This document shows positions 1,837 to 19,449 of a stretch of 25,496 bases of DNA, piece by piece. Source of the DNA: a virus (Duplodnaviria; Heunggongvirae; Uroviricota; Caudoviricetes); the IMG/VR virus record IMGVR_UViG_2724679539_000001, positions 1 to 25,496 of that record; one strand, given 5' to 3'. A program made the translations under genes and the position numbers. Within the stretch, counting starts at the first letter, position 1. Every line of letters begins with the position of its first letter. The notes beneath the pieces were generated by a model. It was given only the letters and a program-made list of their open reading frames with translations. It searched no databases and had not been told where the DNA came from.

Positions 1837-4800
1837 ATGAGTAAAGGAAGCAGTAAGGGGCATACCCCGCGCGAAGCGAAGGACAACCTGAAGTCCACGC
1901 AGTTGCTGAGTGTGATCGATGCCATCAGCGAAGGGCCGGTTGAAGGTCCGGTGGATGGATTAAAAAGCGTGCTGCTGAACAGTACGCCGGTGCTGGACAC
2001 TGAGGGGAATACCAACATCTCCGGTGTCACGGTGGTGTTCCGTGCCGGTGAGCAGGAGCAGACACCGCCGGAGGGGTTTGAATCCTCCGGCTCCGAGACG
2101 GTGTTGGGTACGGAAGTGAAATACGACACGCCGATCACCCGCGCCATCACGTCGGCAAACATCGACCGACTGCGCTTTACCTTCGGTGTGCAGGCACTGG
2201 TGGAAACCACCTCAAAGGGGGACCGGAATCCGTCGGAAGTTCGCCTGCTGGTTCAGATACAGCGTAATGGTGGCTGGGTGACGGAAAAAGATATCACCAT
2301 TAAGGGCAAAACCACCTCGCAGTATCTGGCCTCGGTGGTGGTGGATAACCTGCCGCCGCGCCCGTTTAATATCCGGATGCGCAGAATGACGCCGGACAGC
2401 ACCACAGACCAGCTGCAGAACAAAACGCTCTGGTCGTCATACACCGAAATCATCGATGTGAAACAGTGCTACCCGAACACGGCACTGGTCGGCGTGCAGG
2501 TGGATTCGGAGCAGTTCGGCAGCCAGCAGGTGAGCCGTAATTATCATCTTCGCGGGCGCATTCTGCAGGTGCCGTCGAATTATAACCCGCAGACGCGGCA
2601 ATACAGCGGTATCTGGGACGGAACGTTTAAGCCAGCATACAGCAACAACATGGCCTGGTGTCTGTGGGATATGCTGACCCATCCGCGCTACGGCATGGGG
2701 AAACGTCTTGGTGCGGCGGATGTGGACAAATGGGCGCTGTATGTCATCGGCCAGTACTGCGACCAGTCAGTGCCGGACGGCTTTGGCGGCACGGAGCCGC
2801 GCATCACCTGTAATGCGTACCTGACCACACAGCGCAAGGCGTGGGACGTTCTCAGTGATTTCTGCTCGGCGATGCGCTGTATGCCGGTATGGAACGGGCA
2901 GACGCTGACGTTCGTGCAGGACCGACCGTCGGATAAGGCGTGGACCTATAACCGCAGTAATGTGGTGATGCCGGATGATGGCGCGCCGTTCCGCTACAGC
3001 TTCAGCGCCCTGAAAGACCGCCATAATGCCGTTGAGGTGAACTGGATTGACCCGAACAACGGCTGGGAGACGGCGACAGAGCTTGTTGAAGATACGCAGG
3101 CCATTGCCCGTTACGGTCGTAATGTTACGAAGATGGATGCCTTTGGCTGTACCAGCCGGGGGCAGGCACACCGCGCCGGGCTGTGGCTGATTAAAACGGA
3201 GCTGCTGGAGACGCAGACCGTGGATTTCAGCGTCGGCGCAGAAGGGCTTCGCCATGTACCGGGCGATGTTATTGAAATCTGCGATGATGACTATGCCGGT
3301 ATCAGCACCGGTGGTCGTGTGCTGGCGGTGAACAGCCAGACCCGGACGCTGACGCTCGACCGTGAAATCACGCTGCCATCCTCCGGTACCACGCTGATAA
3401 GCCTGGTTGACGGAAGTGGCAATCCGGTCAGCGTGGAGGTTCAGTCCGTCAACGACGGCGTGAAGGTAAAAGTGAGCCGTGTTCCTGAGGGTGTTGCTGA
3501 ATACAGCGTATGGGGGCTGAAGCTGCCGACGCTGCGCCAGCGCCTGTTCCGCTGCGTGAGTATCCGTGAGAACGACGACGGCACGTATGCCATCACCGCC
3601 GTGCAGCATGTGCCGGAAAAAGAGGCCATCGTGGATAACGGGGCGCACTTTGACGGCGAACAGAGTGGCACGGTGAATGGTGTCACGCCGCCAGCGGTGC
3701 AGCACCTGACCGCAGAAGTCACTGCAGACAGCGGGGAATATCAGGTGCTGGCGCGATGGGACACACCGAAGGTGGTGAAGGGCGTGAGCTTCCTGCTCCG
3801 TCTGACCGTAACAGCGGACGACGGCAGTGAGCGGCTGGTCAGCACGGCCCGGACGACGGAAACCACATACCGCTTCACGCAACTGGCGCTGGGGAACTAC
3901 AGGCTGACAGTCCGGGCGGTAAATGCGTGGGGGCAGCAGGGCGATGCGGCGTCGGTATCGTTCCGGATTGCCGCACCGGCAGCACCGTCGAGGATTGAGC
4001 TGACGCCGGGCTATTTTCAGATAACCGCCACGCCGCATCTTGCCATTTATGACCCGACGGTACAGTTTGAGTTCTGGTTCTCGGAAAAGCGGATTACCGA
4101 TATCAGGCAGGTTGAAACCACAGCCCGCTATCTTGGCACGGCGCTGTACTGGATAGCCGCCAGTATCAATATCAAACCGGGCCATGATTATTATTTTTAC
4201 ATCCGCAGTGTGAACACCGTTGGCAAATCGGCATTTGTGGAGGCTGTTGGCCAGCCGAGTGATGATGCATCCGGCTATCTGGATTTTTTCAAAGGAGAGA
4301 TAGGGAAAAGCCATCTGGCTCAGGAGCTGTGGACGCAGATTGATAACGGTCAGCTTGCGCCTGACCTGGCTGAAATCAGGACGTCCATTACGGATGTCAG
4401 CAATGAAATCACGCAGACCGTCAATAAGAAACTGGAAGACCAGAGTGCGGCAATTCAGCAGATACAGAAGGTTCAGGTTGATACAAATAATAACCTGAAC
4501 AGCATGTGGGCTGTGAAGCTGCAGCAGATGCAGGACGGACGCCTTTATATCGCGGGTATTGGTGCCGGTATTGAGAATACCCCTGACGGTATGCAGAGTC
4601 AGGTGCTGCTGGCGGCGGACAGGATTGCGATGATTAATCCTGCGAATGGCAACACAAAGCCGATGTTTGTTGGTCAGGGCGATCAGATATTTATGAATGA
4701 AGTGTTCCTGAAATATCTGACGGCTCCCACCATTACCAGCGGCGGTAATCCTCCGGCATTTTCCCTGACACCGGACGGGCGGCTGACGGCAAAAAATGCC

Positions 4801-6047: not shown

Positions 6048-8429
6048 ATGGCAGCAGTAAAAATCTCAGGTGTGCTGAAAGATGGTGCGGGAAAACCAAT
6101 ACAGAACTGCACTATTCAACTGAAGGCAAAGCGTAACAGCACCACGGTACTGGTGAACACGGTGGCCTCTGAAAATCCGGATGAAGCCGGGCGTTACAGC
6201 ATGGATGTTGAGTATGGTCAGTACAGCGTCACCCTGCTGGTTGAAGGTTTTCCGCCTTCACATGCCGGGACCATTACCGTCTATGAAGGTTCCAGACCAG
6301 GTACGCTGAATGATTTTCTCGGTGCCATGACGGAAGATGATGTCATGCCGGAGGCATTGCGTCGTTTTGAGGAAATGGTGGAAGAAGCGGCACGCAACGC
6401 TGAAGCCGCCTCTCAGAGCGCAGCGGCGGCAAAGAAATCCGAAACTGCAGCGGCATCATCGAAGAACGCGGCGAAAACCTCAGAAACGAATGCAGCTAAC
6501 AGCGCACAGGCGGCAGCGGCCTCGCAGACTGCATCGGCAAACTCCGCAACAGCAGCTAAAAAATCAGAAACCAACGCGAAAAATAGCGAGACAGCCGCAA
6601 AGACGAGCGAAACCAACGCAAAGTCCAGCCAGACGGCAGCGAAGACCAGCGAAACGAATGCCAAAGCCAGTGAAACTGCGGCAAAAAACAGCCAGGTTGC
6701 AGCAGCCCAAAGCGAGAGCGCGGCAGCCGGTTCTGCGACTTCAGCAGCTGGATCAGCAACTGCTACGGCTAACAGCCAGAAAGCTGCGAAGACGAGTGAA
6801 ACTAACGCAAAGTCCAGCCAGACGGCAGCGAAGACCAGCGAAACGAATGCCAAAGCCAGTGAAACTGCGGCGAAAAGCAGTCAGGATGCAGCGGCTCAAA
6901 GCGAGAGTGCCGCAGCCAGTTCTGCAAGCGCGGCGGCTGCTTCTGCCACTGCATCAGCCAACAGTCAAAAAGCAGCAAAAACCAGTGAAACCAATGCAAA
7001 GGCGAGCGAGACTGCGGCGGCTAACTCGGCGAAAGCATCCGCAGCAAGCCAGACGGCTGCAAAAGCAAGTGAAGACGCAGCCAGAGAGTATGCAAGCCAG
7101 GCTGCGGAGCCGTATAAACAAGTTTTGCAGCCGCTTCCCGATGTGTGGATACCATTTAACGATTCGCTGGATATGATTACGGGCTTTTCGCCGTCATATA
7201 AAAAGATTGTTATTGGTGATGATGAAATAACGATGCCTGGCGATAAGGTTGTAAAGTTTAAACGCGCATCAAAAGCAACTTACATTAATAAATCTGGTGT
7301 GCTGACAGAGGCTGCCATTGACGAGCCACGGTTTGAACGTGATGGCCTGCTTATTGAGGGGCAAAGAACTAATCTTCTGCTTAATTCAACAAATCCATCT
7401 AAATGGAATAAGTCAGGCAATCTGGAACTCACAGAAATATCCACGGATTCATTTAATTTTACTTATGGGAGATTTACTGTAAAAGATACTCTTATTGATC
7501 AGACAAGTGCGATTAATATCGCAACGGTTTCTGGCAGTAAAGGATTTGATGTCACAGGTGATGAAAAATATGTGACCATTTCATGCCGTGTCAGAAGTGA
7601 TGTTGAAAATATAAGGTGTCGTTTAAGATTTGAACATCATGATGGTTCTACTTACACTTTTTTGGGAGATGCTTACCTCAATTTATCAACACTTGTAATT
7701 GATAAGACTGGTGGTGCAGCAAATCGTATTATTGCAAAAGCTGTAAAAGATGAGGCTACTGGTTGGATTTTCTATCAGGCTACAATTAATGCACTAGATA
7801 CAGAGAGCATGATTGGTGCGATGGTTCAATATGCTCCAGTAAAAGGTTCAGGCACAGCATCTGGAGACTATCTGGATATCGCAACTCCACAAGTGGAAGG
7901 TGGATCAAGTGCTTCGTCATTTATTGTAACTGATATAACTGCAAGCACTCGCGCAAGCGATATGGTGACAGTCCCAATCAAGAATAACCTTTATAATCTT
8001 CCTTTTACGGTTCTTTGTGAGGTACATAAGAACTGGTATAAAACGCCAAATGCAGCACCGCGTGTTTTTGATACCGGCGGTCATCAAACCGGAGCGGCTA
8101 TTATTCTTGGCTTCGGTCGTTCAACAGATTACGACGGATTTCCTTATTGTGATATAGGTTTGGCTAACAGACGGGTAAACGAAAACGCATCGCTTGAAAA
8201 AATGGTTATGGGGATGCGTGTAAAGTCAGATCAGTCTACGTGCTCAGTAAGTAACGGGCGTATATCCAGCGAAACAAAAACCACATGGTCTTATATTCAG
8301 AACACCGCAATTATCCGTATTGGAGGCCAGACTACAGCCGGGTTACGTCATTTGTTTGGACACATCAGGAATTTCAGAATATGGCATAAAGAATTAACTG
8401 ATGCGCAAATGGGGGAGAGTATTAAATGA
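6048..8429 (+). CDS. stf: Side tail fibre protein with Stf-like N-terminal domain, Ala/Ser/Thr-rich repeat shaft and divergent AT-rich C-terminal domain
   Basis: N-terminus MAAVKISGVLKDGAGKPIQNCTIQLKAKRNSTTVLVNTVASENPDEAGRYSMDVEYGQYSV matches lambda Stf as recalled. The ORF track starts at GTG 6042; ATG at 6048 with GGAG 5 nt upstream is the more likely start. Confidence 0.85.
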   Translation: MAAVKISGVLKDGAGKPIQNCTIQLKAKRNSTTVLVNTVASENPDEAGRYSMDVEYGQYSVTLLVEGFPPSHAGTITVYEGSRPGTLNDFLGAMTEDDVMPEALRRFEEMVEEAARNAEAASQSAAAAKKSETAAASSKNAAKTSETNAANSAQAAAASQTASANSATAAKKSETNAKNSETAAKTSETNAKSSQTAAKTSETNAKASETAAKNSQVAAAQSESAAAGSATSAAGSATATANSQKAAKTSETNAKSSQTAAKTSETNAKASETAAKSSQDAAAQSESAAASSASAAAASATASANSQKAAKTSETNAKASETAAANSAKASAASQTAAKASEDAAREYASQAAEPYKQVLQPLPDVWIPFNDSLDMITGFSPSYKKIVIGDDEITMPGDKVVKFKRASKATYINKSGVLTEAAIDEPRFERDGLLIEGQRTNLLLNSTNPSKWNKSGNLELTEISTDSFNFTYGRFTVKDTLIDQTSAINIATVSGSKGFDVTGDEKYVTISCRVRSDVENIRCRLRFEHHDGSTYTFLGDAYLNLSTLVIDKTGGAANRIIAKAVKDEATGWIFYQATINALDTESMIGAMVQYAPVKGSGTASGDYLDIATPQVEGGSSASSFIVTDITASTRASDMVTVPIKNNLYNLPFTVLCEVHKNWYKTPNAAPRVFDTGGHQTGAAIILGFGRSTDYDGFPYCDIGLANRRVNENASLEKMVMGMRVKSDQSTCSVSNGRISSETKTTWSYIQNTAIIRIGGQTTAGLRHLFGHIRNFRIWHKELTDAQMGESIK
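6596..6929 (+). repeat. Internal tandem direct repeat inside stf (period 189 bp = 63 aa; two near-identical units with a 63-bp perfect core)
   Basis: 6621-6683 is identical to 6810-6872 (aagtccagccagacggcagcgaagaccagcgaaacgaatgccaaagccagtgaaactgcggc); flanks are ~85% identical. Encodes repeating KTSETNAK(A/S)S(E/Q)TAAK motifs. Confidence 0.85.
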
Positions 8430-10092: not shown

Positions 10093-10119
10093 AGACCCCA
10101 TCTATAACTGATGGGGTCT
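10093..10119. terminator. Bidirectional terminator-like hairpin between the convergent membrane-protein gene and sopB
   Basis: Perfect 10-bp inverted repeat AGACCCCATC-tataact-GATGGGGTCT with A/T-rich flanks on both sides. Mirror copy at 15378-15404. Confidence 0.5.
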
Positions 10120-10135
10120 ATTCTATTTTCTGCTA

Positions 10136-11125
10136 TTAGTTATTTTTTACATCGGAAGAATTTCCAAACGCCTCCTCAAGAATAGATTCAATTTTACTCA
10201 TTAGGTGCGATGGTATTTTTCTGTTATCTAATTTTAATGTTGTGAAATTTTTCCCATATTTCGCCACAACACCGTCTCCATATTTCTTTTCCCTTTTCTC
10301 TCCATGTGAATTGTTTTTCTCAACAATAATGAAATCATGAAGAGCCTGTATTATTCTTTGCGCATCTAAACTTTCACCTGATTTTTTCATCCTCAGCAAC
10401 TGAGATGCAGCATTTTTCATGGCTGCTTCCTGTCCCTGATATGCTTTAAAAAGAGCGTCTCCTGCTCTGGCTGATAACTCACCAGGATGGTTAAATATTG
10501 CCAATATATCTTTAGGTAAACCGGCTGTATTAATACATCGGCTGATAATATTTCTATCCACGCCTTCGGCTTCAGCTAAAGATTTTACGTTACCGTCAAA
10601 TTCATGGAGCCTTCGCAGGTATCTTTTCCCCCTTTCATAGGCGCTGATAGGTCTATAGTCGTTGCCTATCTGCGATAACCATTGCATTTGTTCATCATCT
10701 AAATCGCCAATAAGAACACGATAATCGCATCCAGTTATAATGGCTGCTTTACGTCTTCGAGAACCATCAGCTACTTCAACAATACCTGACACTTTTCTTG
10801 CGAAAGCCGGATTTTGTTGCCCAGAAGTTAGAAAAGATGGAATTAAATCAGCTAGAGAAGATTCATTTAATAAATCTTGATCACGCTCATTACCTAGCCA
10901 TACCATTGTTGCCATTTCTACTTTATCTGCGGGGATCGTCTCTAACTTAAAGTTAACATTACGTCCGCATACTGGCAAAGTTATGCTATTACCGGTTAAT
11001 GAACTCAGTTGACGTTTTAAATCACCAACCATAGGTGATACCGGCTGATGTTCAGGTGCATGATGATTATTACTCATAATGCGATTAATATCCGGAGCAT
11101 TTTTTAGAAGAGAGCGTTGTTTCAT
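10136..11125 (-). CDS. sopB: Partition protein SopB (ParB family, type Ia)
   Basis: 329-aa ORF. N-terminal two-thirds resemble F-plasmid SopB (ITLPVCGR, WxGNERDQ, GQQ.PAF, DGSRRRKAA, NDYRP.SAYERG, FSHPGELSA-like motifs); the C-terminus is divergent. ATG overlaps the sopA stop. Confidence 0.9.
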   Translation of the reverse strand: MKQRSLLKNAPDINRIMSNNHHAPEHQPVSPMVGDLKRQLSSLTGNSITLPVCGRNVNFKLETIPADKVEMATMVWLGNERDQDLLNESSLADLIPSFLTSGQQNPAFARKVSGIVEVADGSRRRKAAIITGCDYRVLIGDLDDEQMQWLSQIGNDYRPISAYERGKRYLRRLHEFDGNVKSLAEAEGVDRNIISRCINTAGLPKDILAIFNHPGELSARAGDALFKAYQGQEAAMKNAASQLLRMKKSGESLDAQRIIQALHDFIIVEKNNSHGEKREKKYGDGVVAKYGKNFTTLKLDNRKIPSHLMSKIESILEEAFGNSSDVKNN

Positions 11126-12291
11126 TCTTCGTTCTCCCAGCGAGGTTTTATTAGATCATCAAAAATTTCTCGACAAACAGGGTCCCATATAGAGACGGCA
11201 TTTCTCCATGCATTAAGTGTTGAACGCTGGTTTGCCGCTTGTTCAAATACTGTTCGCATTTTTATCTGACCTTTACCTACTTCATCGGTAACGCGTACAA
11301 CCTGACGTAATACCATTGATCCCCATGTATTTCTTATTTGCTCTTCCATCCATCGTGATTGATTTCCTGTAGTGAGACTATATTTAGTCAGAAGCAAGCG
11401 AACGGTCGGCTCAAATCCGCCTAGGTCAACGCTTTCTAGGAGATCGAGAAGCATTGTGAAAAACTGTAGAACAGAGGCGTAATCAAATAATTCTGCAGGG
11501 GTAGCAACAACGATAACGTCAGCTGCGCAAACAACGTTAATGGTTCCTGTACCGAGGTTTGGAGCACTATCTATAACGATAACATCGTAGTTATCCCAAA
11601 CTGATTCTATAGCTGCGCGTAGCATCAGGTGAGGAGGGTGAGGCAATTTACCCTGAGCATGATATTGCATGAGATCTGTTTCTATACGGTGTAAAGCTAG
11701 GCAGCTAGGAATAATGTCCAGTCCAGGCCAGCATGTTGGTTTTATAGCATATTCAGCGTTATCGCGTTCGCCCAAGTAAAATGGCAGTAAAGTATCCTCG
11801 GCATGTATATGTAAATCAGGTACATAACCGTGATACATGGAGGCTGTTCCCTGAGGATCGTTACCTTCAACTAAAAGAACACGATGACCTTGTAATGCTA
11901 GCCATTGTGCCTGATGTACTGCAGACGATGTTTTATAAACTCCGCCTTTGTGTGACATAACAGCAAGCACAACTGGGTTTTTATCTTGTGGCCGTTGGTT
12001 TGGGTTGCCAAAAACAGCTCGCATACTATTGATTTGATCTATGGTATAACCGGCACGACGTTCAACTCTTCCTCTCATTTCAAAGTCAGGTGCAGGTAAA
12101 CGCCCGTTCTTCTCAGCATCTCTTATTGCTTGAGGAGTTACACCAATTAAATCTGCTACTTCAGTTATCCCCCATCTACGCGTGATACGCCGAGCTTCAG
12201 GACTATCATCACCGAATTGAGCTATAGCAATTGCTTGGGTCATTTCTTGACCGCGCGTAACACAATCTTGTAATAACTTTTTCAAAGACAT
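11122..12291 (-). CDS. sopA: Partition ATPase SopA (ParA family, type Ia with N-terminal HTH extension)
   Basis: 389-aa ORF with deviant Walker A KGGVYKTS and a long N-terminal extension. High similarity to F/N15 SopA as recalled (LLVEGNDPQGTASMYHG, IDSAPNLG, KGQIRMRTVFEQA-like blocks). GGAG RBS. Confidence 0.95.
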   Translation of the reverse strand: MSLKKLLQDCVTRGQEMTQAIAIAQFGDDSPEARRITRRWGITEVADLIGVTPQAIRDAEKNGRLPAPDFEMRGRVERRAGYTIDQINSMRAVFGNPNQRPQDKNPVVLAVMSHKGGVYKTSSAVHQAQWLALQGHRVLLVEGNDPQGTASMYHGYVPDLHIHAEDTLLPFYLGERDNAEYAIKPTCWPGLDIIPSCLALHRIETDLMQYHAQGKLPHPPHLMLRAAIESVWDNYDVIVIDSAPNLGTGTINVVCAADVIVVATPAELFDYASVLQFFTMLLDLLESVDLGGFEPTVRLLLTKYSLTTGNQSRWMEEQIRNTWGSMVLRQVVRVTDEVGKGQIKMRTVFEQAANQRSTLNAWRNAVSIWDPVCREIFDDLIKPRWENEE

Positions 12292-12312
12292 ACTGTCATC
12301 TCCAGCTTATAA

Positions 12313-12390
12313 CTTTGCTTAATAATTATTGCTTTGCATATTTCTAGCAAATTGACATAGAAAAAGCAAAGTAAAACAAAAAAGGCAAAG
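12313..12390 (-). promoter_or_regulatory. Putative sopAB promoter/operator region with four CTTTGC/GCAAAG hexamers
   Basis: Hexamers at 12313-12318, 12332-12337, 12366-12371 and 12385-12390, immediately upstream of sopA. F SopA is known to autoregulate via CTTTGC repeats overlapping its promoter. Exact -35/-10 not resolved. Confidence 0.45.
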
Positions 12391-12570
12391 ACGAAGATTT
12401 GAACAAAATCATCTTTTGTTTTATCCCTTAAATGCAAAAAAAAACAACGGCAAGATCATAACAAATTGATAATAAAGGATTTTTTAAAAGAAAGGAAATC
12501 GTATAAAACTAGTGAAACATGATGAAAATCATCAATGAGATACGTTTCCTCTATTTATTCTCCTAATCCT

Positions 12571-12720
12571 CACCAACAAAAGAACACAATCAAAGATCGT
12601 AAAACAACAATAATAATTCACACAAAATAAAGAACACAAATACAGAAAACAACAACACAATAAAAACAAGAGAACACAAGCTATAAATATTACACCAATA
12701 GAGAACACTAATCAAGAACA
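12571..12720. repeat. Array of AGAACACA(A) direct repeats flanking the telomere palindrome (left arm)
   Basis: AGAACACAAT at 12581-12590, AGAACACAAA at 12631-12640, AACAACACAA at 12651-12660, AGAACACAAG at 12671-12680, GAGAACACTA at 12701-12710, and GAACA at 12716-12720 abutting the palindrome. Confidence 0.6.
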
Positions 12721-12776
12721 TATCAGCACATAATTTCCCATTATACGCGCGTATAATGGGAAATTATGTGCTGATA
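12721..12776. other. 56-bp perfect palindrome at the symmetry axis; putative protelomerase target / hairpin telomere (telRL/telO-like)
   Basis: Sequence TATCAGCACATAATTTCCCATTATACGCGCGTATAATGGGAAATTATGTGCTGATA. The central 22 bp match the N15 telO core as I recall it; the flanking arms differ from N15 at a few positions. Sits immediately beyond sopA, as telL does in N15. Confidence 0.75.
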
Positions 12777-12926
12777 TGTTCTTGATTAGTGTTCTCTATT
12801 GGTGTAATATTTATAGCTTGTGTTCTCTTGTTTTTATTGTGTTGTTGTTTTCTGTATTTGTGTTCTTTATTTTGTGTGAATTATTATTGTTGTTTTACGA
12901 TCTTTGATTGTGTTCTTTTGTTGGTG
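12777..12926. repeat. Mirror copy of the AGAACACA repeat array (right arm, opposite orientation)
   Basis: Reverse complement of 12571-12720 (TGTGTTCT motifs). Confidence 0.6.
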
Positions 12927-13106: not shown

Positions 13107-13184
13107 CTTTGCCTTTTTTGTTTTACTTTGCTTTTTCTATGTCAATTTGCTAGAAATATGCAAAGCAATAATTATTAAGCAAAG
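13107..13184 (+). promoter_or_regulatory. Putative sopAB promoter/operator region (mirror copy)
   Basis: Mirror of 12313-12390; CTTTGC/GCAAAG hexamers upstream of the second sopA copy. Confidence 0.45.
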
Positions 13185-17071: not shown

Positions 17072-19449
17072 TTAATACTCTCCCCCATTTGCGCATCAGT
17101 TAATTCTTTATGCCATATTCTGAAATTCCTGATGTGTCCAAACAAATGACGTAACCCGGCTGTAGTCTGGCCTCCAATACGGATAATTGCGGTGTTCTGA
17201 ATATAAGACCATGTGGTTTTTGTTTCGCTGGATATACGCCCGTTACTTACTGAGCACGTAGACTGATCTGACTTTACACGCATCCCCATAACCATTTTTT
17301 CAAGCGATGCGTTTTCGTTTACCCGTCTGTTAGCCAAACCTATATCACAATAAGGAAATCCGTCGTAATCTGTTGAACGACCGAAGCCAAGAATAATAGC
17401 CGCTCCGGTTTGATGACCGCCGGTATCAAAAACACGCGGTGCTGCATTTGGCGTTTTATACCAGTTCTTATGTACCTCACAAAGAACCGTAAAAGGAAGA
17501 TTATAAAGGTTATTCTTGATTGGGACTGTCACCATATCGCTTGCGCGAGTGCTTGCAGTTATATCAGTTACAATAAATGACGAAGCACTTGATCCACCTT
17601 CCACTTGTGGAGTTGCGATATCCAGATAGTCTCCAGATGCTGTGCCTGAACCTTTTACTGGAGCATATTGAACCATCGCACCAATCATGCTCTCTGTATC
17701 TAGTGCATTAATTGTAGCCTGATAGAAAATCCAACCAGTAGCCTCATCTTTTACAGCTTTTGCAATAATACGATTTGCTGCACCACCAGTCTTATCAATT
17801 ACAAGTGTTGATAAATTGAGGTAAGCATCTCCCAAAAAAGTGTAAGTAGAACCATCATGATGTTCAAATCTTAAACGACACCTTATATTTTCAACATCAC
17901 TTCTGACACGGCATGAAATGGTCACATATTTTTCATCACCTGTGACATCAAATCCTTTACTGCCAGAAACCGTTGCGATATTAATCGCACTTGTCTGATC
18001 AATAAGAGTATCTTTTACAGTAAATCTCCCATAAGTAAAATTAAATGAATCCGTGGATATTTCTGTGAGTTCCAGATTGCCTGACTTATTCCATTTAGAT
18101 GGATTTGTTGAATTAAGCAGAAGATTAGTTCTTTGCCCCTCAATAAGCAGGCCATCACGTTCAAACCGTGGCTCGTCAATGGCAGCCTCTGTCAGCACAC
18201 CAGATTTATTAATGTAAGTTGCTTTTGATGCGCGTTTAAACTTTACAACCTTATCGCCAGGCATCGTTATTTCATCATCACCAATAACAATCTTTTTATA
18301 TGACGGCGAAAAGCCCGTAATCATATCCAGCGAATCGTTAAATGGTATCCACACATCGGGAAGCGGCTGCAAAACTTGTTTATACGGCTCCGCAGCCTGG
18401 CTTGCATACTCTCTGGCTGCGTCTTCACTTGCTTTTGCAGCCGTCTGGCTTGCTGCGGATGCTTTCGCCGAGTTAGCCGCCGCAGTCTCGCTCGCCTTTG
18501 CATTGGTTTCACTGGTTTTTGCTGCTTTTTGACTGTTGGCTGATGCAGTGGCAGAAGCAGCCGCCGCGCTTGCAGAACTGGCTGCGGCACTCTCGCTTTG
18601 AGCCGCTGCATCCTGACTGCTTTTCGCCGCAGTTTCACTGGCTTTGGCATTCGTTTCGCTGGTCTTCGCTGCCGTCTGGCTGGACTTTGCGTTAGTTTCA
18701 CTCGTCTTCGCAGCTTTCTGGCTGTTAGCCGTAGCAGTTGCTGATCCAGCTGCTGAAGTCGCAGAACCGGCTGCCGCGCTCTCGCTTTGGGCTGCTGCAA
18801 CCTGGCTGTTTTTTGCCGCAGTTTCACTGGCTTTGGCATTCGTTTCGCTGGTCTTCGCTGCCGTCTGGCTGGACTTTGCGTTGGTTTCGCTCGTCTTTGC
18901 GGCTGTCTCGCTATTTTTCGCGTTGGTTTCTGATTTTTTAGCTGCTGTTGCGGAGTTTGCCGATGCAGTCTGCGAGGCCGCTGCCGCCTGTGCGCTGTTA
19001 GCTGCATTCGTTTCTGAGGTTTTCGCCGCGTTCTTCGATGATGCCGCTGCAGTTTCGGATTTCTTTGCCGCCGCTGCGCTCTGAGAGGCGGCTTCAGCGT
19101 TGCGTGCCGCTTCTTCCACCATTTCCTCAAAACGACGCAATGCCTCCGGCATGACATCATCTTCCGTCATGGCACCGAGAAAATCATTCAGCGTACCTGG
19201 TCTGGAACCTTCATAGACGGTAATGGTCCCGGCATGTGAAGGCGGAAAACCTTCAACCAGCAGGGTGACGCTGTACTGACCATACTCAACATCCATGCTG
19301 TAACGCCCGGCTTCATCCGGATTTTCAGAGGCCACCGTGTTCACCAGTACCGTGGTGCTGTTACGCTTTGCCTTCAGTTGAATAGTGCAGTTCTGTATTG
19401 GTTTTCCCGCACCATCTTTCAGCACACCTGAGATTTTTACTGCTGCCAT
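17068..19449 (-). CDS. stf: Stf-like side tail fibre protein (mirror copy)
   Basis: Protein identical to the 6048-8429 ORF. Confidence 0.85.
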   Translation of the reverse strand: MAAVKISGVLKDGAGKPIQNCTIQLKAKRNSTTVLVNTVASENPDEAGRYSMDVEYGQYSVTLLVEGFPPSHAGTITVYEGSRPGTLNDFLGAMTEDDVMPEALRRFEEMVEEAARNAEAASQSAAAAKKSETAAASSKNAAKTSETNAANSAQAAAASQTASANSATAAKKSETNAKNSETAAKTSETNAKSSQTAAKTSETNAKASETAAKNSQVAAAQSESAAAGSATSAAGSATATANSQKAAKTSETNAKSSQTAAKTSETNAKASETAAKSSQDAAAQSESAAASSASAAAASATASANSQKAAKTSETNAKASETAAANSAKASAASQTAAKASEDAAREYASQAAEPYKQVLQPLPDVWIPFNDSLDMITGFSPSYKKIVIGDDEITMPGDKVVKFKRASKATYINKSGVLTEAAIDEPRFERDGLLIEGQRTNLLLNSTNPSKWNKSGNLELTEISTDSFNFTYGRFTVKDTLIDQTSAINIATVSGSKGFDVTGDEKYVTISCRVRSDVENIRCRLRFEHHDGSTYTFLGDAYLNLSTLVIDKTGGAANRIIAKAVKDEATGWIFYQATINALDTESMIGAMVQYAPVKGSGTASGDYLDIATPQVEGGSSASSFIVTDITASTRASDMVTVPIKNNLYNLPFTVLCEVHKNWYKTPNAAPRVFDTGGHQTGAAIILGFGRSTDYDGFPYCDIGLANRRVNENASLEKMVMGMRVKSDQSTCSVSNGRISSETKTTWSYIQNTAIIRIGGQTTAGLRHLFGHIRNFRIWHKELTDAQMGESIK
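18568..18901 (-). repeat. Internal 189-bp tandem repeat inside stf (mirror copy)
   Basis: Mirror of 6596-6929. Confidence 0.85.

Follow-up and report, generated by a model that had tools for sequence, protein, structure and literature searches.

A putative SopA operator of the F type upstream of the sopAB partition operon in an N15-like linear phage-plasmid

Two kinds of short repeated sequence lie in front of the partition gene sopA in the viral DNA considered here (the window, a stretch of 25,496 bases). Copies of the hexamer CTTTGC are clustered close to the gene, and a perfect 15-bp palindrome lies further toward the telomere. A previous interpretation made from the letters alone (the sequence-only reading) took the hexamers to be an operator through which the partition operon is likely autoregulated as in F, and the palindrome to be a separate candidate binding site. 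The question is whether either proposal survives comparison with related replicons and with what has been established for F, and what else in this intergenic region is maintained.

The structure of the window has to be dealt with before its features can be counted. The window equals its own reverse complement at every position except 14 within the outer 16 nt of each end; it is a head-to-head duplication of one 12,748-bp arm, with its centre at 12748/12749. Every feature of the first arm therefore recurs mirrored, with coordinate x becoming 25497-x, and the operator pattern described below was matched at both 12313 and 13107 (mirror copy 13107-13184, plus strand). Judged by its sequence, the window comes from an N15-like linear phage-plasmid, of which it is the sop-side arm, folded back at the hairpin telomere. 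The core at the window's centre, CCATTATACGCGCGTATAATGG, is the core of N15 telRL, and the features that mark an N15-like hairpin telomere (telRL/tos) were all found: the palindromic core, the TATCAGCAC arms (12721-12776) and a set of GAACAY repeats (12580-12716). In its replicated, palindromic form the telomere resolution site occupies 12721-12776 and reads TATCAGCACATAATTTCCCATTATACGCGCGTATAATGGGAAATTATGTGCTGATA, with the hairpin tip at 12748/12749. The repeats are direct copies of RAGAACAC at 12580, 12630, 12670 and 12701, followed by GAACATATCAGCAC, which adjoins the telomere core. A GAACAY series likewise borders N15 telRL, and inverted copies (TGTGTT) of the RAGAACAC series are found on the telN side of PhiR46_1 (L010, 80-175); the series presumably consists of accessory repeats of the telomere region.

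A close relative is Escherichia phage PhiR46_1 (PV340565.1, from E. coli ECOR13), the end of which is 100% identical to 10100-12748. Within that stretch PV340565.1 annotates ParB, ParA and a 'telR site', the last label being given to the corresponding end. Most of the remaining arm is 96-99% identical to PhiR46_1, about 1 kb (7304-8376) has no alignment to it, and the window corresponds to 33.5-46.3 kb of that genome. The best database matches show 96-97% identity over the whole arm and 100% in the sop-telomere part. As for the fold-back of 2 x 12,748 bp, it is probably a long-read assembly artefact produced by read-through of the hairpin, because this arrangement, in which a sopA gene flanks the telomere on either side, is also seen in several RefSeq/GenBank records labelled 'plasmid' (NZ_CP101203.1, 14,498 bp; CP088558.1, 11,214 bp; NZ_LT906558.1; NZ_CP014491.1; NZ_CP126957.1) and in one labelled 'chromosome' (NZ_CP025707.1). 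The alternative is that a replicated-telomere intermediate or junction was the biological source of the fold-back.

The proteins encoded next to the hexamers are orthologous to the partition proteins of F and N15. The sopA gene (11122-12291, minus strand, with its ATG at 12291-12289) specifies a 389-aa type Ia ParA ATPase with an N-terminal winged helix-turn-helix (wHTH), and scores 734.2 bits against the NCBIfam equivalog NF010259 'plasmid-partitioning protein SopA' (cut-off 725). It is 74% identical to F SopA, with which it has the same HTH, and 93% identical to N15 SopA. Its N-terminal 105 residues align with those of both proteins; the wHTH-bearing extension is present and the HTH conserved, and the segment QAIRDAEK-GRLP and R75 are invariant. 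A Shine-Dalgarno sequence, GGAG (12300-12303, minus strand), lies 8 nt before the sopA ATG and is invariant in relatives. Downstream, sopB (10136-11125, minus strand) encodes a 329-aa ParB-type centromere-binding protein, the presumed co-repressor, which was identified from its open reading frame and from a score of 405.5 bits against NF010252 (cut-off 274); its sequence identity is 49% with F SopB and 74% with N15 SopB.

The sequence-only reading had counted four CTTTGC/GCAAAG hexamers in about 80 bp upstream of sopA. Four perfect copies are present, at 12313, 12332, 12366 and 12385; the count is right for perfect copies, and yet there are five motifs in all once GCAAAT at 12347 is included, and their regular spacing had been overlooked. 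The putative SopA operator they form is 78 bp long (12313-12390, minus strand) and lies 22-99 bp upstream of the sopA ATG. On the sop strand (minus), motif #1 (CTTTGC, 12390 to 12385) is separated by 13 nt from motif #2 (CTTTGC, 12371 to 12366), which is followed after another 13 nt by motif #3 (ATTTGC, 12352 to 12347, that is, GCAAAT at 12347-12352, with one mismatch). After 9 nt comes motif #2' (GCAAAG, 12337 to 12332) and after a further 13 nt motif #4 (GCAAAG, 12318 to 12313), both of which read CTTTGC on the plus strand, and 21 nt then remain to the ATG. There are, in other words, three direct repeats (#1, #2 and #3) with a 19-bp period and two inverted partners, and the inverted spacers are exactly 28 bp for both #2/#2' and #3/#4.

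Such hexamers might simply reflect chance or the base composition of an AT-rich spacer and have no binding partner, and it is true that the region is only 28% G+C and that ten further copies are scattered over the 12.7-kb arm (5/10 of them at 6429-6996, within or beside a repeat stretch at 6567-7019). Against this, when the 457-bp intergenic region was shuffled 20,000 times with its dinucleotide content preserved, the mean expectation was 0.24 perfect hexamers, compared with the four observed (P(>=4) = 5e-5 for the count alone). Moreover, the spacing fits the F template to the base, the motif columns are invariant while the spacers drift, and the layout recurs in nearly all operators that we retrieved. 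We regard a chance origin as effectively refuted and give it next to no credence.

The operator also shows signs of constraint. The alignment comprised nine sequences in two clades, namely the window, a relative at 97% identity, five E. coli plasmids of the sister clade and a plasmid each from E. albertii and E. fergusonii. The sister clade is ~79% identical over the sopA-telomere intergenic region, and the nine sequences range from ~79 to 100% overall. Within the operator, 0/30 motif columns are variable as opposed to 17/48 spacer columns (Fisher P = 6.8e-5), a distribution that points to purifying selection on the motif positions and not on the spacer positions. In PV340565.1 the operator is overlaid by an annotated 51-aa 'hypothetical protein' (12282-12437, minus strand), which we rejected as a gene on finding an in-frame stop in the relative L007; this frame appears to be conserved only through conservation of the operator underneath and is most likely not a gene.

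The same layout is found well beyond these nine sequences. When we scored operators against a template taken from the layout published for F (Boudsocq et al. 2021, PMC8465637), the window reached 29/30, F and N15 28/30 each, and phiKO2 26/30. Besides F, N15 and phiKO2, the layout is present in MStein-2023a and in 2/3 bacterial genome contigs. Among viral contigs that bear SopA we collected 30 distinct operators; all but two of them score 26-30/30, the inverted partners are always at 28 bp, and two contigs have all five motifs perfect. The model of three dimers on overlapping inverted repeats was built on 16 promoters, and the window's lineage is not among them (PMC8465637). The supplement to that study reports having found no close relative of the N15 promoter, and these lineages are therefore independent of the model's own promoter set. 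Taken together, the operators of the window's lineage and of the viral contigs offer independent comparative support for #2' as a genuine binding motif.

There is precedent for an operator of this kind. The layout was derived for F and pointed out in pLVPK, N15 and phiKO2 (PMC8465637), and the window shares with F sopAB (parAB-F) the hexamer CTTTGC, a set of three direct copies separated by 13 bp, an inverted copy 28 bp past #3, a #2' partner, the position of the array just upstream of sopA and a distance of 21-22 nt from motif #4 to the ATG. In the published F layout, one inverted copy follows 28 bp downstream and #2', which is degenerate, is 27 bp from #2 (PMC8465637). The window differs in that its #2' is perfect and at 28 bp, whereas that of F is GCAAGA at 27 bp, and in that its #3 reads ATTTGC, whereas #3 of F is perfect. 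The perfect inverted pair is consequently 2-2' in the window and 3-4 in F, which is the one peculiarity of the window's operator. N15 has the same operator layout, and like the window's replicon it is a linear plasmid prophage with a hairpin telomere beside sopA and the same telomere core. In contrast to the window, however, N15 combines three perfect direct repeats with degenerate inverted partners (GTAAAG and ACAAAG), and its intergenic region beyond the operator is barely alignable. We also noted that N15-type intergenic regions contain a conserved segment with a GAAGCT-ATTT-AGCTTC stem-loop (N15; L002, ~3728-3775), which is absent in the window's lineage.

The sop promoter of the Klebsiella phage-plasmid phiKO2, which was analysed together with those of F and N15 (PMC8465637), likewise has the five-motif layout and the 28-bp spacers. 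Both of its inverted partners are ATAAAG, unlike those of the window, and the DNA is ~75% identical within genes, with an unrelated intergenic region. More distantly, the parA operators of P1 and P7 illustrate the same principle of type Ia ParA autoregulation, in that overlapping inverted motifs, spaced by 26-28 bp, allow the operon's own ParA, which has an N-terminal wHTH, to repress it (PMC8465637). Here the recognition motifs and the proteins differ, so the likeness is one of functional analogy only.

Given the above, we consider it very probable that 12313-12390 is the operator of the sopAB partition operon in an N15-like linear phage-plasmid and that it is autorepressed by SopA/SopB. The sequences compared here themselves show the motifs and how they are spaced, the selective conservation of those motifs, protein orthology and, in a close relative, dispersed centromere sites, while SopA binding, its stoichiometry, the position of the promoter and repression itself are carried over from F and N15. 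In F, ParA protects 87 bp from DNase I, from #1 to #4; three ParA dimers bind the operator, ParB enhances their binding, and the centromere raises repression even in trans (PMC8465637). By analogy, a plausible scenario for the window is that SopA in its apo or ADP form would sit as dimers on CTTTGC-type hexamers set as overlapping inverted pairs, namely #2/#2' (perfect) and #3/#4 (one mismatch in #3), with their 28-bp spacers, and that a third dimer would touch the lone motif #1 with one of its subunits. Such a complex would lie over a proposed weak sigma-70 promoter and the transcription start and so shut off sopAB. SopB would assist as co-repressor, with a greater effect once it is loaded on centromere sites. 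The suggestion that the operon is autoregulated as in F is supported in silico by the identity of the motifs, their spacing, the constraint on motif positions only and the assignment of SopA to an equivalog with a wHTH. That SopA works through CTTTGC repeats is upheld as far as the identity of the operator goes; as to the manner of binding, the current evidence in F is for dimers on overlapping inverted pairs and not for monomers on simple repeats (PMC8465637).

The promoter is the weakest link of the autorepression reading. A scan of 12200-12760 found no site at 9/12 or better, and the promoter is therefore placed by analogy only. The best candidate that we could read from the sequence pairs a putative -35 TTGCTA (12345-12350, minus strand), which overlaps motif #3, with a putative -10 AATTAT (12322-12327, minus strand), which falls between #2' and #4. 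With its 17-nt spacer this pair has 8/12 consensus positions, below the threshold of the scan. It may be noted that the -35 of F likewise abuts motif #3, and that both halves of the candidate fall in stretches that are invariant among relatives, including the stretch TAATTATTAA at the putative -10, which is invariant in all nine sequences. On the other hand, where the window aligns to the -35/-10 pairs that we read in F (TTGCTT-17-TTTAAT) and in N15 (TTGCTT-18-TATGAT), its sequence is degenerate. If the promoter exists at all, it must be shifted by a few bases relative to those of F and N15. Apart from this 8/12 candidate, what counts against the operator reading is the mismatch in motif #3 (ATTTGC) and the fact that the centromere sites were seen in a relative.

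With regard to the centromere, it had been proposed that the window holds no sopC-like array of 43-bp tandem repeats and that the centromere may be dispersed, as in N15. Tandem Repeats Finder bears out the first part, in that it showed no sopC-like array in the arm and sizeable tandem repeats only at 6567-7019, far from the sop operon. No 43-bp tandem repeats with TGGGACCNNGGTCCCA occur downstream of sopB in the window, as they would in F, and PhiR46_1 is without an F-type site at 0-1 mismatch. The repeats at 6567-7019 consist of a 189-bp unit (2.3 copies) and a 42-bp unit and are rich in GCAAAG; the segment 7304-8376 that does not align to PhiR46_1 is close by. The centromere repeats of N15 have the form GTGCGACC-NN-GGTCGCAC (oligonucleotide table, PMC7205306), one of them sits in repA (PMC2847241), and the four (IR1-IR4) are at 33479, 35930, 41124 and 45561. 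The N15-type repeat GTGCGACCNNGGTCGCAC was found 0 times in the window with up to 3 mismatches allowed. The full genome of PhiR46_1, by comparison, has five GTGCGACCNNGGTCGCAC sites, at 7931, 10374, 14753, 17793 and 18013, against four in N15, and all five are outside the 33.5-46.3 kb counterpart of the window, on the other arm. The site at 7931 has one mismatch and is inside the replication gene, so that here too one copy lies within a replication gene and the rest are scattered on the same arm, as in N15. The sites at 17793 and 18013 both fall between the lysis genes and the gene that comes next, just 220 bp from each other. Dispersion of the centromere is thereby borne out in a close relative and is right for this kind of replicon. 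SopB sites in such replicons would be individual copies of the 18-bp inverted repeat GTGCGACCNNGGTCGCAC, dispersed over the other arm, with no sopC array.

The 15-bp palindrome TGATGA-AAA-TCATCA, or TGATGAAAATCATCA, is at 12520-12534 exactly as reported, with no strand assigned. It is not part of the sopA operator. The proposal that it is a separate candidate binding site holds only to the extent that the palindrome is there; its occurrence is at chance level, and its dyad, which is specific to this lineage, is broken in the sister clade. The more elaborate form of the proposal is that the palindrome is a dyad-symmetric site for a separate regulator such as Fur, another host factor or a phage repressor. 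In its favor, the inverted repeat is perfect (6+3+6), the block around it is invariant or nearly so in nine relatives, and it matches the Fur consensus, GATAATGATAATCATTATC, at 13/19 positions. However, perfect inverted repeats with 6-bp arms and loops of 0-6 nt turned up in 49% of shuffles of 12391-12700, where two such repeats are seen (P(>=2) = 0.22), and 20% of shuffles reach at least 13/19 for Fur, such that a Fur box was rejected as a chance-level match. The sister clade reads TGATAAGAATCATCA or TGATAAAAATCATCA at this place, which leaves 5/6 arm pairs. Since both the sister clade and E. fergusonii have A in place of G12524, which is needed for perfect arms, the symmetry is not what is conserved. 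The N15-type relatives examined keep the flanks (ACATG ... ATAC) and have no palindrome at the counterpart position, and the exact 15-mer is without a second copy in PhiR46_1. We consider a site for a separate regulator very unlikely; the palindrome is probably not a dyad-symmetric binding site, and we conclude that as such it is incidental.

Several other readings of this part of the region were tried. An intrinsic terminator was rejected for the palindrome after a scan of 12200-12760 found no terminator-like site. An Rfam search of 12200-12800 returned only spurious microRNA-hairpin matches from the giant palindrome, and at the operator and the 15-bp palindrome nothing of note, there being two matches far below the family thresholds (E 0.2-0.6). 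Immediately upstream of the operator lies a second palindrome, ACAAAATCATCTTTTGT (6+5+6, 12403-12419), whose symmetry is likewise interrupted in the sister clade. One octamer, AAATCATC, occurs at 12406-12413 and again, 120 bp away, at 12526-12533, and is invariant in both places.

What is conserved around the palindrome is a longer intergenic block (12488-12548, no strand assigned), in which invariant runs are found at 12488-98, 12504-11, 12527-35 and 12540-47 in the nine sequences (~79-100% identical overall). The conserved pattern is ACATGAT.A.AATCATCAA.GA.ATACGTTT and not the dyad. A frame of ACATG-N18-ATAC is common to the window's lineage, N15 and three relatives (L045, L050 and L051); N15-type regions possess a positional counterpart of the block, and in that set it is at a similar place, ~225-255 bp from both sopA and the telomere core. 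A mini-ORF of 15 codons, MMKIINEIRFLYLFS*, was also noted at 12519-12566 (plus strand); it starts inside the palindrome and reads toward the telomere. Its counterpart in the sister clade is MI(R/K)IINEIRFLY* and that in E. fergusonii is MIKIINDIRFLYSFSLSLLILELN*, and, read by eye, about 5 of 6 differing positions in the first 12 codons are third codon positions. In N15-type relatives an ATG or GTG is present at the aligned place, followed by a different peptide.

One way to account for the block is as a cis-element tied to the telomere, either the outermost member of the GAACAY series, bound by protelomerase, or a promoter or leader that includes the mini-ORF, which in the uncut circular form would read toward telN. 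The constant distance from sopA and the telomere core, together with the ACATG-N18-ATAC frame, would fit with this, as would the RAGAACAC repeats that fill 12580-12716 and the predominance of third-position changes in the mini-ORF. Yet the block resembles a telomere half-site over ~11 bases only, N15-type peptides have unrelated N-termini, the frame of the mini-ORF was picked after the fact, no consensus promoter was found on either strand in the promoter scan, and a promoter-like TTATCA-16-TATGAT in the sister clade is within chance expectation. On balance we think such a telomere-tied element unlikely. That the ~60-bp block is an undescribed cis-element of N15-like phage-plasmids, in the form of an outermost site for protelomerase or a host factor or of a short translated leader, seems to us a shade more unlikely. 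If it were true, the block would couple the state of the telomere (uncut circle or hairpin end) to expression of sop or telN. The block is best described as a conserved element, for which a telomere-related binding site or a leader are offered only as guesses, with low confidence. IHF-type and sigma-70 readings of the block, made by eye, gave weak matches only, at positions that are not conserved between the clades, and were rejected, as was a 58-aa ORF (12532-12708), across which the sister clade has single-base indels.

To return to the sopA operator, it is an ordinary and already understood control element, in a phage with a public sequence. What its identification would mean is that this E. 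coli lineage of N15-like linear phage-plasmids retains the F/N15 circuit for autoregulation of partition, which has little import beyond annotation. As the HTH of SopA and the hexamer match those of F, it is plausible that these phage-plasmids engage in regulatory cross-talk with F-like plasmids in the same cell or are incompatible with them.

The sop operon of N15 is reportedly also served by a second promoter near telRL, repressed by protelomerase and described by Dorokhov, Lane and Ravin (2003). We observed a promoter-like TTGACT-18-CATAAT (10/12) on the telN side of PhiR46_1 (L010, 26-55, minus strand) and of L005 (1972-2001, minus strand), pointing toward sop across the telomere site. It falls outside the window, whose sequence excludes the telN arm. 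This sequence may correspond to the second N15 promoter and could drive sop only before the telomere is cut. Finally, a 52-kb contig of an assembly labelled Limoniibacter endophyticus (NZ_BMZO01000013.1, L013) carries a sopA 94% identical to that of the window together with a phiKO2-like operator; an enterobacterial phage-plasmid has apparently contaminated that assembly.
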